Shown in pieces: positions 14,225 through 57,074 of a DNA stretch of 64,000 nt. Origin of the DNA: Oscillospiraceae bacterium (GTDB lineage: Bacteria; Bacillota; Clostridia; Oscillospirales; CAG-272). Numbering within the stretch: the stretch's first letter is position 1; the number at the start of each line of letters is the position of its first letter. The translations under genes and the position numbers were made by a program. The notes beneath the pieces are model-generated. The model saw only the letters and a program-made list of their open reading frames with translations. It had not been told where the DNA came from and did no database searches. The stretch lies in NCBI GenBank assembly GCA_015064845.1, contig SVRL01000007.1, forward strand, positions 1,790 to 65,789, read 5' to 3'.

Positions 14225-15592
14225 ATGAAGATTGCGGCGGATTACGGTTTCAAAGCAGACAATGACGGTTTTGAAAATGCCCGTGCATTGCAAAATGCAG
14301 TGCTTGGCGGTGGTGAAATTTTGATCGACCGACCGGGTGTTTATGAAATCGCGGATACGGTCATGTTGGATGACGGCACGGACTTGCGTTTTTGTGAAGG
14401 TGCATATCTGAAAAGGATGAATAATCCCGATGAAAACGGTTATGTTTTTATTAACAGAGGCGCATATACGAAAACGTACAATGAAAATATTTCCGTTACG
14501 GGGCTCAAACTGATTTGCAATGACGTGATTGCTTCTCCGGAAACGAAGAATTCCGAAAAAGTTATTCTCGGTTTGATTGGACATTGCAGTTTCTTTTACG
14601 TGAAAAATCTGAAGATTCGGAATTTTGAATGTCTTGATCTGCCGAAAAAGAATTTTTGTATTCACATATGTACGTTTGAAAACGTGGAATTGGAAAATCT
14701 TCGCATCGAGGGTATGAAGGATGCCGTGCATTTCGGCAGAGGGAAGAATTTTTCGGTACGGCACGGAATATTCCGTACTTTCGACGATCCGATTGCACTC
14801 AACGGTCATGATTACGTGAATTCCAATCCCGAGCTCGGTTGGATTGAGAACGGTATCGTTGAGGATTGTTATGATCTCGACGCAGATTCCACTACGGGAT
14901 ATTTTTGCCGTATTTTAGCGGGAGCGTGGACGGATTGGCATGAGGGAATGCTCGTTCAGCGTTCGGATACCGTGGTTTCGGAAGGCCGTATGTACCGCGT
15001 ATGTATGCCGGGCGACGGGAAATCTTACCGTTCCGTTACCCGTCCGACACATAAGAGCGGAGAAAAGGAATATGACGGTTTTGTTTGGGCGGCGGTACAG
15101 GAAGATATTACTTATACCGCAGGCTGCCGTAACATTCATTTTAAGGATATTCATTTGCAAAAGAAACGTTCCGTCGCATTTTCCATTCATTTTGACAGAA
15201 ATGAATGGTCGCGCAGTTATTATCCGAATGCCGAGTCTCCCGTTCAGGAGAATATTACCTTTGAAAATATCATTTCGGAATCGGAGGATCTTCCCGTATT
15301 GCTTTGGACGCTTTCGCCTGTTGATCGCGTGCATTTTAAGGATTGTACGTTGAAAAATAATTTTATTCGTTTTGGATGTCTTCGCGCGGAAGGTATCGTG
15401 TATCAAACGACGGAGATCATGCTCGAAGGAACGAATTTCACGGAAGAAATACCTCTGTTGGTTCAATGTGCTCCCGGAAGAAGCATTGATCTGCATGTCG
15501 TAAACTCCAAAAATAAAAATTTTTCCTCTGAAATTATGGGCGATGTGCGGATTTGTGAATCGGATATTTCGCTTGGTAAAAGAGAGCGTTGA
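14225..15592 (+). CDS. Right-handed beta-helix protein (pectate-lyase-3/GH28-like), cytoplasmic
   Basis: The N-terminus (AADYGFKADNDGFENARALQNAV..GGEILIDRPGVYEI) matches the tailspike/rhamnogalacturonase-type start. Repeats of about 25 aa are hydrophobic/Asn-rich. No signal peptide. Confidence 0.6.
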   Translation: MKIAADYGFKADNDGFENARALQNAVLGGGEILIDRPGVYEIADTVMLDDGTDLRFCEGAYLKRMNNPDENGYVFINRGAYTKTYNENISVTGLKLICNDVIASPETKNSEKVILGLIGHCSFFYVKNLKIRNFECLDLPKKNFCIHICTFENVELENLRIEGMKDAVHFGRGKNFSVRHGIFRTFDDPIALNGHDYVNSNPELGWIENGIVEDCYDLDADSTTGYFCRILAGAWTDWHEGMLVQRSDTVVSEGRMYRVCMPGDGKSYRSVTRPTHKSGEKEYDGFVWAAVQEDITYTAGCRNIHFKDIHLQKKRSVAFSIHFDRNEWSRSYYPNAESPVQENITFENIISESEDLPVLLWTLSPVDRVHFKDCTLKNNFIRFGCLRAEGIVYQTTEIMLEGTNFTEEIPLLVQCAPGRSIDLHVVNSKNKNFSSEIMGDVRICESDISLGKRER

Positions 15593-15647
15593 TATTTATC
15601 GTTTGATACTTCATCGAACTCGCGTTAACACAGCATATAAAAGCAAA

Positions 15648-15684
15648 GAAAACCGCTGCAGATCAGACTCTGTGGCGGTTTTCT
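15648..15684. terminator. Bidirectional hairpin terminator between convergent genes
   Basis: AAAACCGCTGCAG-ATCAGACT-CTGTGGCGGTTTT, with A- and T-runs on either side. Confidence 0.7.
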
Positions 15685-15699
15685 TAAATCAGTTTAAGG

Positions 15700-17157
15700 T
15701 TAGAATTTCATATTCTGAAGCATTTTTTGAAGCATCTTTTGTATTTCAATAACATATTCAAAGCATTGCGTGGCTTTTATACGGTTGAATGATCCCGTAT
15801 GTGCAGCGGGGTTTCGAAAATCTACTCTCAAACGTTCGATGAAATTACAGTTGCGTTCGATTTCTTGCTTAACTTTTTCCGTTGGCATTCCTGTAAAAAG
15901 GATGTTTTTTGCGTAATCCAAAAAAATGGGAGAGATATTATAACGGTCGATTTTTGCGATATTTACAAAGCTTCCCAACGTGAATATTTCGGTCGGCTTT
16001 GTAATCCCTCGGTGCCTGTCTGTGTAAAGCATGACTTTCGGCCATTTTCCGTAGTCATCTCTAAATCTTTTTTGCAAATACTGCTGATATCCTATGAAAA
16101 AACGTTTTGATGCTTCCAGTTCGACTGTTTTTGTAATCAGAAGACATACGCCTGAATAATCCATGGAAAGGGAGGTATCAGTCTTCAACATACTTTCAAA
16201 TGTATACCGTGCTGTGATCAAATAGGATTTAGTGGATTCATCTAATTTGTTCCAGGTTGATTCGTCGATGCTTTCTTTTAAAATGTTTTCGCATGTGGAA
16301 ACTGCAAGGCGGTTGGCATATTTTTCCCGTATGTTTTGAAGAATTTTCGTGATTTCATTTTGAGAAAGTATCTCGCAGTTTTCTGTTTCATCGCCATAGG
16401 ATGAAAGGAGTTGTTTTTTTCGTTCGTCAATGGCTGCCATGCAGTTCAGAAGTTCGCTTTTGGGAATTCCTACGCAGTTCAGTATGTCATTCTGAAGGGC
16501 GACAATATTATTTAAACGGAGGATTTCCTTTGCTTTTTGCGTGTCGCTTTCACGCAATTGATTGTTGGCTGCTTCTAAAAAAGTGCATTTGTATTTCATA
16601 AGCTGGAAATCGATGACCATTTTTTCTGCTTCGCTTGCAAAAAGAGAATCCCGAATATCGATCAATTTTCCTGTGCGATACAAAAGATATGGAGAAGAAA
16701 ACAAAGCGGCAAGCGTGTTAAAATCTTTATCTGCATCGGAGAACAATTCTTGTCCGGCACGAATGAAAGAAATGATTCTCGTGTTTTCTCCGATGTATTT
16801 GTCCAATTTTCGTCGATCGCTGAAATTTACATTATGTAAGATGAGCAGTTCCGCATTTTTTAACGTCTCTCTTTTTTCGTTGATGATTGTGTTGACCGTA
16901 TCACATTCGCAGGGAAGAGAACGCAAGCGGAATTGTTCCTCGAATTGGAAGATGCGGTTACGCCAACTGCTTAAAAAAATGATTTTTCTGCTTTTTTGCT
17001 TTTCCGCGAAAATATATGACACTATCTTTGTTCCGTGTCCGACGGGGACAATGACGGAAAGATGGCCGGCGCCGTGATCTTTGAGCCATAGTGTGAGCTC
17101 TTCAAGAAGTTTACACTGTGTTTTGCTTAATTGATCTTCTTTGATAAGATTTATCAT
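15700..17157 (-). CDS. Orphan protein: degenerate P-loop/helicase-like N-domain, coiled coil and C-terminal HEPN-like (Rx4H) domain
   Basis: 485 aa with an AAGGAGA RBS, visibly AT-rich. GHGTK at residues 40-44, LLILHNV at 104-110, and RNPAAH at 448-453 (nt 15799-15816). Confidence 0.8.
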   Translation of the reverse strand: MINLIKEDQLSKTQCKLLEELTLWLKDHGAGHLSVIVPVGHGTKIVSYIFAEKQKSRKIIFLSSWRNRIFQFEEQFRLRSLPCECDTVNTIINEKRETLKNAELLILHNVNFSDRRKLDKYIGENTRIISFIRAGQELFSDADKDFNTLAALFSSPYLLYRTGKLIDIRDSLFASEAEKMVIDFQLMKYKCTFLEAANNQLRESDTQKAKEILRLNNIVALQNDILNCVGIPKSELLNCMAAIDERKKQLLSSYGDETENCEILSQNEITKILQNIREKYANRLAVSTCENILKESIDESTWNKLDESTKSYLITARYTFESMLKTDTSLSMDYSGVCLLITKTVELEASKRFFIGYQQYLQKRFRDDYGKWPKVMLYTDRHRGITKPTEIFTLGSFVNIAKIDRYNISPIFLDYAKNILFTGMPTEKVKQEIERNCNFIERLRVDFRNPAAHTGSFNRIKATQCFEYVIEIQKMLQKMLQNMKF

Positions 17158-17242
17158 TGTGCTTCTCCTTGTTGTTTTATGGTGTTGTTAAAAGATGAAA
17201 GTCGGCAGAAATTGTTCATAATAAAACGGTGCTGTGTCGATA

Positions 17243-17284
17243 CACAAAAATAACAGTGGCGGTTCCTGAATGGAATCGCCACTG
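17243..17284 (-). terminator. Terminator after tRNA-Pro
   Basis: On the minus strand, CAGTGGCG-loop-CGCCACTG followed by TTATTTTT. Confidence 0.7.
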
Positions 17285-17289
17285 AATGG

Positions 17290-17365
17290 TGGTCGGAGCG
17301 ACAGGACTCGAACCTGCGGCATTCTGCTCCCAAAGCAGACGCGCTACCAACTGCGCCACACCCCG
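17290..17365 (-). tRNA. tRNA-Pro (anticodon UGG)
   Basis: 76-nt cloverleaf folded by hand. Acceptor stem CGGGGTG/CGCTCCG, anticodon stem TCTGC/GCAGA with loop TTTGGGA, T-loop TTCGAGT, and an encoded CCA. Confidence 0.93.
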
Positions 17366-17601
17366 ATAAAATAATTAATTTTATAAAATAAACTTAATTA
17401 TATACTGAAACACAGGGTTACGGAATGCAGCTGTCCGCTTGCGCTTCCTGTTGCCACTCCTTATTCCCCAATCAATATAACGAGATGATTATGTGCATGG
17501 TTAAACACACATAACATATTTATTATATATGAAAAAAATCTTTTTGTCAAGAATAAAATGGTTTTTTATGAAAAAAATTTAAAAAACTTTTTAAAAAGGT
17601 A

Positions 17602-17630
17602 TTGACATTTTGAAAAAGATGGTATATAAT
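17602..17630 (+). promoter_or_regulatory. Consensus sigma-A promoter for tRNA-Leu
   Basis: TTGACA (17602-17607), a 17-nt spacer and TATAAT (17625-17630). Confidence 0.8.
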
Positions 17631-56027: not shown

Positions 56028-56527
56028 CGGAATATACGGTCAGACGGTTTCAAAACGGTGATGCGGTTGAAATTTCGGAGCTGATCATTCGTACATTGAG
56101 AACCTCCAATATCAAGGATTATTCAGCGGAATATATTGAGAACGATGTGAAGATGTTTACACCTGAGAGTGTGGTGCAAAGAGCTTCATGGACACATTTT
56201 TACGTGGTTCTTCACAGTAAAAAAATCGTTGGGTGCGGTGCGATCGGTCCGTATTGGGGAAAAGAAGACGAAAGCAGTTTGTTCAATATTTTCGTTTTAC
56301 CCGAATATCAGGGCAAGGGTGTTGGAAAAAGAATCATGGAAACCTTGGAACAGGACGAATTCTTTTTGAAAGCCAAACGAATCGAAATTCCGTCTTCCAT
56401 CACGGCGTGTGAATTTTATAAAAAATTCGGTTATACGTATAAAAACGGTGTTACCGTTCCCGATGAGGAAGGACTCTTCCGATTGGAAAAACGGAGAGGC
56501 GGGTTGTATGATGAGCCGAAAAAATAA
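56024..56527 (+). CDS. GNAT-family N-acetyltransferase
   Basis: Acetyl-CoA loop (QGKGVGKRIM). ATGA overlap with proC. Confidence 0.85.
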   Translation: MTEYTVRRFQNGDAVEISELIIRTLRTSNIKDYSAEYIENDVKMFTPESVVQRASWTHFYVVLHSKKIVGCGAIGPYWGKEDESSLFNIFVLPEYQGKGVGKRIMETLEQDEFFLKAKRIEIPSSITACEFYKKFGYTYKNGVTVPDEEGLFRLEKRRGGLYDEPKK

Positions 56528-57074
56528 ATATATTTCTTTTATTGATAAAAGGATAACGTTAGCGACGTCTTTGGTATGCTTTGTTATCTCGGTGTTGATG
56601 ATATGTTTTTCTGTTACCAATTGGAGCGATCTTTGGAAAGAGGATCCGCTGATGGCGGTGCTTGTTCCGATTGCGGGCGTAATTGTTTTTGTGGCATCTA
56701 TTCTTATGCCGTTGAGCGGAATGATGATTACGAAAAAAGGAAATATTGTCTTTTTACCTGATTTCAGATTGAAAAAATTTAAAATGAATGAATTGAAAAG
56801 AGTTGCATTGAATTTTAATGAATGTAAAAATAAAAAATATGCCGTTACGGTTAAAATGATACCAAAAAATGGAAATGTTTTTAAGGTGAATTATTCGGTG
56901 AATTTCAGAAACCGTATCAAAGGCGAAAAGCTTGCTATGGCAATGTATACGATCAGCAAGAAAAATGTTGACAGCATTGTCGCAAAAACGGCAGATTTGG
57001 ATATTTTTTCTATTACAATCATAGATCAAAATCAGGAAATTGTGTATCAGTCTTTGCCAACAGATTTGTATTGA
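56508..57074 (+). CDS. Hypothetical membrane protein (2 TM helices plus a soluble C-domain), AT-rich
   Basis: ATG at 56508, 9 nt after GGAGAGG. It overlaps the GNAT 3' end by 20 nt. TM segments LATSLVCFVISVLMICF and AVLVPIAGVIVFVASILMPL. Confidence 0.6.
   Translation: MMSRKNKYISFIDKRITLATSLVCFVISVLMICFSVTNWSDLWKEDPLMAVLVPIAGVIVFVASILMPLSGMMITKKGNIVFLPDFRLKKFKMNELKRVALNFNECKNKKYAVTVKMIPKNGNVFKVNYSVNFRNRIKGEKLAMAMYTISKKNVDSIVAKTADLDIFSITIIDQNQEIVYQSLPTDLY

Follow-up and report, generated by a model that had tools for sequence, protein, structure and literature searches.

The stretch of DNA analysed here (the window, 64,000 nucleotides (nt) of an Oscillospiraceae bacterium; GenBank assembly GCA_015064845.1, contig SVRL01000007.1, positions 1,790 to 65,789 of the forward strand) carries on its minus strand, beside a tRNA-Pro gene, a gene for a protein of 485 amino acids. 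The protein combines a degenerate half of a helicase, a helical stalk and a C-terminal domain that probably belongs to the HEPN superfamily, and on balance we favour the view that it is a stand-alone conflict protein, that is, a single-gene defence or toxin ribonuclease (RNase) in which a pseudo-ATPase would act as sensor. The gene and its parts lie as follows.

15700..17157 (-), complete coding sequence from an ATG start, 485 amino acids plus stop codon
16663..17157 (-), N-terminal domain, residues 1-165: degenerate first RecA lobe of superfamily 2 (SF2)/ResIII type
17026..17040 (-), GHGTK, residues 40-44: decayed Walker A, aligning with GAGKT, GSGKT or GCGKT of relatives
16828..16848 (-), LLILHNV, residues 104-110: decayed motif II, aligning with IIDEAHE of relative P0052 and with DE of Dda
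16270..16632 (-), helical stalk, residues 176-296, in the model: helices 176-228, 233-254 and 258-296 (53, 22 and 39 residues)
15703..16269 (-), C-terminal HEPN-like domain, residues 297-485, from the model and the layout criteria of PMC3710099
16144..16146 (-), C338: invariant cysteine of DYSGVCLL, where helix 2 starts
16114..16116 (-), E348: invariant acidic residue within helix 2, alongside K343 and R352
15799..15816 (-), RNPAAH, residues 448-453: RNx3H in 156 of 162 relatives
15763..15765 (-), C465: invariant cysteine in helix 4

An earlier note on this sequence had quoted four motifs from the protein, GHGTK (40-44), LLILHNV (104-110), TKTVELEASKRF (342-353) and RNPAAH (448-453, nt 15799-15816), and all four are exact. 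It had also taken the N-terminal part for a decayed nucleoside triphosphatase of SF2/RecA type, which is borne out by the relatives, where GxGKT and, in one of them, DEAH stand at the aligned positions. The Pfam domain ResIII is present in full-length homologues of 26-28% identity and was matched in eight of 16 aligned members (best 1.4e-12); the window protein by itself falls below the Pfam threshold for ResIII (PF04851). Searches with the family profile hit the first RecA lobe in T4 Dda (7.9e-6) and in UvrB. In the AlphaFold model of the full protein (pLDDT, the predicted score of the local distance difference test, 82.9) residues 1-165 are alternating beta-alpha, and the best Foldseek matches of the full model are SF2 and superfamily 1 (SF1) lobes, those of BRM/Snf2, XPB and Dda. 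Relative P0052 still has GCGKT and IIDEAHE at the positions aligned with GHGTK and LLILHNV. Among the 63 helicase-type members of the alignment, a Walker A of the form GxG[KR][ST] is kept in 15 and the acidic motif II in very few, and Q14, R115 and S130 are conserved in 43, 56 and 53, respectively. A second RecA lobe occurs in no member; there is no Helicase_C match, and past residue 165 the model consists of stalk and C-terminal domain. The N-terminal domain is a helicase half that has repeatedly been turned into a pseudo-ATPase. Because Walker A and motif II are lost and a second lobe was never present, it cannot hydrolyse nucleoside triphosphates or translocate, and it would most likely serve as a sensor, an adaptor or an autoinhibitory part. 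The repeated decay illustrates neatly how a domain of an enzyme can be put to new use as sensor or adaptor. The half-helicase was also considered as a paralogue of the ResIII-Eco57I enzyme adjoining relative P0016, an idea that was rejected (BLASTP E > 1).

The loss of Walker A and motif II could also be read as plain decay, the window copy then being a functionless remnant of a once-active helicase-HEPN protein; that the copy is solitary, with a weak promoter-like site, and that split copies and copies disrupted by an insertion sequence (IS) occur elsewhere would fit such an origin. We think this very unlikely. The 485 codons are intact, with a strong ribosome-binding site and a terminator, all of the family-invariant residues of the C-terminal domain are retained, and the identical protein is found in the same gene context on 23 metagenomic contigs from several samples. 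The ATPase decay is, moreover, common to the window protein's whole clade (39-55% identity), with R115, S130 and the C-terminal domain conserved, which argues for purifying selection and against a decaying remnant.

The middle region had been described in the earlier note as rich in Leu, Glu, Lys and Asn and heptad-like. The first part of this description holds, these residues making up 43% of the stalk region as against 28-35% elsewhere in the protein; the second does not, the hydrophobic periodicity of 3.5 residues being short of significance (P ~0.08), and the region is more safely called a "helical stalk" than a "coiled coil". With its ~120 residues the stalk would probably serve in dimerisation or in the relay of a conformational change. 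Four relatives (P0013, P0014, P0022 and P0046) have a second RNxxAH-like motif (RNELAH, RNRMAH, RNKLAH and RDRIAH, respectively) at residues ~196-215, in the first stalk helix and directly past the helicase lobe, a motif that the window protein does not have. Three members of this subclade retain Walker A, and P0013 has GAGET.

The C-terminal domain is composed of helix 1 (residues 307-326), helix 2 (335-365), an insert of ~60 residues that forms a beta-hairpin and two short helices, helix 3 (426-447), the motif loop and helix 4 (462-481); modelled alone from 14 sequences it reached a pLDDT of 88.7 and a predicted template modelling score of 0.84. R448 follows immediately after helix 3 in the model, H453 lies in a flexible loop and E348 is inside helix 2. 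HEPN domains are defined by an Rx4-6H motif at the end of helix 3, an acidic residue in helix 2 and an insert between these two helices (PMC3710099), and the order found here, helix 1, helix 2 with E348, the 60-residue insert, helix 3, motif and helix 4, agrees with the published HEPN layout (PMC3710099). The HEPN fold is a four-helix up-down bundle of two alpha-hairpins, with which the helix order and the insert of the model are compatible. In 16 homologues, down to 20% identity, R448, P450, H453, E348 and R352 do not vary, and the conservation of N449 is 90% or more. The RNx3H motif lies at a constant distance from the C-terminus in 156 of the 162 family proteins collected.

The best HEPN match of the window protein itself is HEPN_Swt1 (E 0.19, residues 429-466). 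Relatives give weak matches (E 0.002-0.07, below gathering scores) to HEPN_Swt1, Hypoth_Ymh (0.016), Cas_Csm6_HEPN (0.02), DUF4145 and RnlA-DBD, and PADLOC matches to CARF_HEPN and Csm6 at about 0.002-0.005. The Pfam families that recur across several members, Hypoth_Ymh and Cas_Csm6_HEPN, are all HEPN, with HEPN_Swt1 and DUF4145 appearing as single weak matches; those HEPN matches for which positions were reported fall in register on the motif, each being individually weak. When 40 sampled C-terminal domains were scanned alone against Pfam and PADLOC, the HEPN matches were sub-threshold. Alignment with hhalign of 154 C-terminal domains against 24 N-terminal DUF4145-type domains of their own family gave a probability of 62% (P 7.8e-5) on 26 columns around the motif, and a permissive alignment extends co-linearly, the helix-2 "DYS...E" and then RNxxAH being paired in both.

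That the hhalign match rests on so short a segment is one of several points that weigh against the HEPN assignment and the function built on it. The motif loop has a pLDDT below 50 in the model, and no curated HEPN model in Pfam, NCBIfam or PADLOC is significant on the C-terminal domain. Two cysteines foreign to HEPN, C338 and C465, are both present in 146 of the 162 proteins, a conservation equal to that of the motif R and H; they may have a role in packing, in a metal site or in redox chemistry. Nor was any published experiment on a family member found. The earlier note had looked to Foldseek on an AlphaFold model as a check of its HEPN domain; this check brought no confirmation, the C-terminal domain having no match at E <= 0.001 in PDB or BFVD, with the HEPN entries 8y7f and 7ae9 at E > 2 only, and the domain profile had no match among PDB sequences. 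We read the Foldseek null as uninformative rather than negative, because all-helical bundles with large inserts are hard for Foldseek. The note's HEPN claim is supported by the Rx4H motif, its position, the helix-2 acid and the insert between helices 2 and 3; no HEPN profile and no structure gave a significant match. On these features of sequence and model, we consider it probable that the domain is HEPN.

A C-terminal domain that is not a nuclease would account for the lack of significant HEPN matches by sequence and structure. It would bind a ligand, a nucleic acid or a protein, with R, N, H and E as binding residues and the protein as a regulator or scaffold; HEPN-like domains with non-catalytic roles are known (PMC3710099), and the invariant cysteine pair could mean metal or redox chemistry unrelated to RNA cleavage. 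Such a role seems unlikely to us, given that the motif residues are kept in 156 of 162 proteins and that inactive HEPN lineages usually lose them (PMC3710099); the fusion partners, too, are nucleases, helicases and methylases, as is typical of effector modules.

If the protein is the single-gene conflict protein that we favour, its C-terminal domain would be a divergent HEPN-type RNase with an active site made up of R448, N449, H453 and the helix-2 E348, and two such domains, by analogy with characterised HEPN effectors, would pair into a composite active site, HEPN RNases being metal-independent endoribonucleases that work as dimers. The trigger, acting via the N-terminal domain or the stalk, could be some component of a phage or mobile element, or a partner's loss, and RNA cleavage, once switched on, would lead to growth arrest of the infected cell. 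The three-dimensional HEPN fold, the RNase activity and the dimerisation are inferences, as are the trigger, the defence phenotype and the role in abortive infection.

The gene is not the orphan that the earlier note supposed. A word-indexed search gave 20 homologues besides the query, and a profile search that covered 1.84 billion cluster representatives (50% identity) revealed a family of at least 1,249 cluster representatives at E <= 1e-3, with 330 at E <= 1e-30. Many of the profile matches span only positions ~175-491, that is, the stalk and C-terminal domain, the N-terminus being different. Among 162 collected proteins, 63 have the helicase lobe at the N-terminus, 31 a second RNx3H upstream (the double-HEPN type) and 50 something else, the other 18 being short or fragments. 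On 72 members outside the helicase-lobe type, Pfam finds DUF4145 (8) and zinc ribbons, as well as single cases of a Schlafen-group-3 helicase, MrcB_N, ResIII/DEAD, an Eco57I methylase and TFIIB; in some relatives a zinc ribbon and DUF4145 stand ahead of the stalk and C-terminal domain. The constant unit of the family is therefore the stalk plus C-terminal domain, with the N-terminus swapped, as one would expect of an effector cassette whose sensor or enzyme heads can be exchanged. If the C-terminal domain is an active RNase, the variable heads on a constant cassette would form a natural series for how different inputs switch one RNase. In the 1,053-residue relative P0128 the stalk and C-terminal domain are preceded by the zinc ribbon and the cyclin repeats of TFIIB, an additional RNKGIH motif lies upstream, and the protein looks like an archaeal-type transcription factor joined to putative HEPN-like domains.

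Gut and rumen Firmicutes are where the family is mainly found. When one genome for each species (185,579 species genomes) was scanned with a signature peptide, 28 loci emerged, mostly in rumen and gut Clostridia, the others including Fibrobacter (L021, Fibrobacter succinogenes), the rumen methanogen Methanobrevibacter (L030), Anaeroplasmataceae and Trichococcus; this suggests that, in the rumen and gut habitat, the family has been passed from one domain or phylum to another. For the window protein, no homologue was found on a phage or a plasmid. Relative P0082, used as query, gave one homologue, a Priestia plasmid gene annotated as hypothetical, so that the relatives number none on phage records and one on a plasmid.

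A bolder account would make the stalk plus RNPxAH domain an undescribed and widely exchanged immunity effector cassette of bacteria and rumen archaea, with the dead ResIII lobe of the window clade as a decoy. The lobe would mimic the helicase lobe of a restriction enzyme, phage or plasmid anti-restriction proteins would bind it and thereby switch on the RNase, and C338 and C465 as a pair would contribute a switch, by redox or metal, of a kind not known from other HEPN enzymes. We regard this combination as decidedly improbable.

The earlier note had recognised no named system in the arrangement, and none has emerged: the system hidden Markov models of PADLOC v2, including those for RAZR/PD-T7-4, Hhe and AbiO, gave 0 matches to the window protein, no matching family was found, and no paper describing the family was found in the literature. 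With the DUF4145-like and Abi2/Swt1-like groups of the HEPN superfamily (PMC3710099) the protein shares an R-[polar]-x3-H motif ending helix 3 and an acid in helix 2, and with the superfamily at large the frequent fusion to SF-II helicases or restriction-modification (R-M) enzymes and the defence-island context (PMC3710099). It differs in its 60-residue insert with beta-hairpin, in C338 and C465, and in the invariant Pro that follows R-N. CnuE of the CoCoNuT systems (PMC11090510) is similar in layout, with an N-terminal adaptor, a coiled-coil or helical region and one or more C-terminal HEPN domains, and it is linked functionally with helicases and with Type IV restriction; one relative of the window protein, P0013, lies beside McrBC. 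The N-terminus of CnuE is, however, an elongated winged helix-turn-helix where the window protein, compared by described layout, has a RecA lobe, and CnuE shares its operon with the CnuH helicase and with homologues of McrBC, the window gene by contrast being solitary.

RAZR (PD-T7-4), a single-gene abortive-infection RNase of the DUF4145 HEPN type in which substitution of R and H abolishes defence and activation needs dimerisation and higher-order assembly (PMC13017515), resembles the window protein in being a single gene that joins a small sensor domain to a HEPN RNase. RAZR consists, however, of a zinc finger plus DUF4145, the last residue cited being 184, where the window protein has a dead helicase lobe, and the text of the paper mentions neither a coiled coil nor a second HEPN-like domain (PMC13017515). 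BxaP and Ishtar are further single-gene DUF4145/HEPN defence proteins. A precedent for joining an inactive first helicase lobe to HEPN is found in Caenorhabditis, where HEPN-T is fused to an inactive N-terminal ATPase domain of a LAF-1/Vasa-like helicase (PMC3710099). This protein differs in being eukaryotic, in belonging to an unrelated HEPN family (paREP1/8), in missing the motif R and in having arisen by an independent fusion.

Gao et al. in 2020 reportedly described Hhe as a single-gene system of helicase, HEPN and Vsr. AbiO joins a PD-(D/E)xK domain to an SF1B/Schlafen helicase (PMC13064643). Both are defence proteins with helicase and nuclease in one polypeptide, like the window protein under our reading, but their helicases are complete and of active type, whereas the window protein has half a helicase, and that decayed. 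Relative P0138 carries an AbiO/Schlafen-type helicase ahead of the stalk and C-terminal domain. PADLOC matches in relatives, to AbiO, PDC-M16A, mad2 and R-M subunits, were gone when the 40 sampled C-terminal domains were scanned alone, and none of these domains matched AbiO or Hhe; AbiO was thereby rejected as the identity of the family, and its matches most likely stem from the N-terminal helicase of members such as P0138. HEPN fused to SF-II helicases is already documented, as are single-gene DUF4145/HEPN defence proteins; what is new here is that a pseudo-enzyme made of half a helicase is combined with a stalk and with a C-terminal RNPxAH domain bearing a 60-residue insert and two invariant cysteines. 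The large family of C-terminal domains is not identified significantly by the copies of Pfam, NCBIfam and PADLOC that were searched. If the domain is an active RNase, a large HEPN-like family that these collections miss is defined here, and the defence catalogues would gain a single-gene candidate for anaerobes, a group from which comparatively few systems have been tested.

The surroundings of the relatives agree with the earlier note, which had looked for them in defence islands. P0016 comes after a 1,371-residue ResIII+Eco57I enzyme; the P0015 locus includes Dcm, EcoRII, DUF6339, Vsr and GmrSD, and that of P0012 Dcm and DUF6339; P0013 adjoins McrBC; WYL and WCX regulators and AAA_21/AAA_15 ATPases lie downstream of P0004; and the Priestia plasmid homologue is located between an AAA+UvrD pair, an HNH nuclease, and a DEAD helicase with a methyltransferase. 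P0017 is split, a 258-residue ResIII open reading frame (ORF) overlapping a 312-residue ORF for stalk and C-terminal domain by 8 nt (L041/L042, 9232-10939), and lies on an element resembling an integrative and conjugative element (ICE), with ParA, SSB, Lar, ParB, a sortase and RelB. In L040 (9502-10939) an InsA-type IS takes the place of its upstream half. Split copies are frequent, being listed in 117 blocks of the collection. The relatives sit in defence, R-M or mobile islands, and the note's concern that they might be core genes with housekeeping synteny is answered by loci that are patchy and defence-linked. Clustering of 481 flanking ORFs from 33 loci revealed no conserved partner gene, and a 461-residue gene downstream at the P0016 locus, considered as a related partner, was rejected (hhalign probability 1.5%).

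These neighbourhoods also bear on the question whether the same HEPN-type RNase chemistry might serve another end, as an addiction or stabilisation toxin, or as an anti-plasmid or R-M back-up nuclease similar to PrrC or Ishtar. The P0017 element with its ParA, SSB, Lar, ParB and RelB, and the several relatives that directly adjoin R-M enzymes, speak for such a role; a census of HEPN domains proposes a PrrC-like coupling for those linked to R-M (PMC3710099), and Ishtar HEPN proteins effect plasmid clearance. On the other side, no antitoxin-like gene or R-M partner goes with the family in a conserved way, the window copy lacks neighbours of R-M or mobile-element kind, and no relatives were found on phage records and only one on a plasmid. 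We judge these roles, taken together, to have a small chance of being the right ones, and continue to prefer a stand-alone conflict protein.

At the window locus itself, the signals around the gene are the following.

17164..17170 (-), ribosome-binding site AAGGAGA, 6 nt 5' of the ATG, read directly from the sequence
17211..17240 (-), weak sigma-70-like promoter candidate TCGACA-18-AACAAT, with only 9 of 12 consensus matches
17254..17284 (-), terminator hairpin of tRNA-Pro, then the U-tract UUAUUUUU (-23.8 kcal/mol, z -5.4)
17290..17365 (-), tRNA-Pro(tgg), same strand as the gene and 132 nt upstream of it
15646..15685 (both strands), bidirectional intrinsic terminator, an A-run and a U-run around the stem

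The ORF of 485 codons with its own AAGGAGA, the tRNA-Pro beside its start (tRNA end at 17290, with 132 nt between tRNA and gene) and the bidirectional terminator at its end are all where the earlier note had placed them. The stem-loop at 15646-15685 folds strongly (minus strand, -22 kcal/mol and z -5.0; plus strand, z -4.8 over a stretch in which it lies) and closes both the 485-residue gene and the convergent gene 14225-15592. Since tRNA-Pro has its own terminator, the gene is a separate transcription unit and needs a promoter of its own, for which TCGACA-18-AACAAT, weak as it is, is the sole promoter-like site. Among RNA runs, none was found that contains the gene. On the far side of tRNA-Pro stand two perfect (12/12) sigma-70 promoters (TTGACA-17-TATAAT), back to back, of which the one at 17522-17550 (-) faces tRNA-Pro, ~150 nt upstream of the mature tRNA 5' end, and the other, at 17602-17630 (+), faces tRNA-Leu.

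The position 132 nt downstream of tRNA-Pro and near tRNA-Leu might be taken to mean that the protein is a housekeeping RNA-processing enzyme tied to the adjacent tRNA genes, HEPN enzymes of RNA processing being known, with Las1 among them (PMC3710099). We consider this extremely unlikely: tRNA-Pro is terminated separately, homologues are rare and patchy (the 28 loci in 185,579 species genomes) and none shares the synteny of the window, the composition of the gene is atypical, and the relatives lie in defence islands.

The note had further called the gene AT-rich and the tRNA-Pro a landing site for acquired DNA. The first point holds in part. The G+C content of the gene is 0.386 overall and 0.407 at third codon positions (z = -2.15 and -2.17), the second lowest among 40 window ORFs, and the composition is thus atypical, to a modest and not an extreme degree. 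The second point found no support. The neighbours in the window are unremarkable (a GH28-like protein, a two-component system, tRNA-Pro, tRNA-Leu, a lipoprotein-like ORF, MBOAT and a DHHW protein), and it counts against a conflict protein at this locus that the genes around the window copy are housekeeping ones, with no defence gene or integrase among them, that no att repeat derived from tRNA-Pro was found near the gene, and that no empty site was seen, metagenomic orthologues of the flanking gene 14225-15592 reaching no more than 73% identity and lacking synteny. In four bovine-gut runs that match in part, the contigs held no junction bypassing the gene. The reading as a tRNA-integrated island was dropped because no att-like repeat of tRNA-Pro was found; there is no integrase in the flanks either, and composition alone is atypical. 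Judged by that composition, the window copy was possibly acquired. The lowest G+C content among the window ORFs (0.346, z -3.3; 0.387 at third codon positions) belongs to 56463-57074 (+), which encodes 203 amino acids with no Pfam match and is another candidate for foreign DNA.

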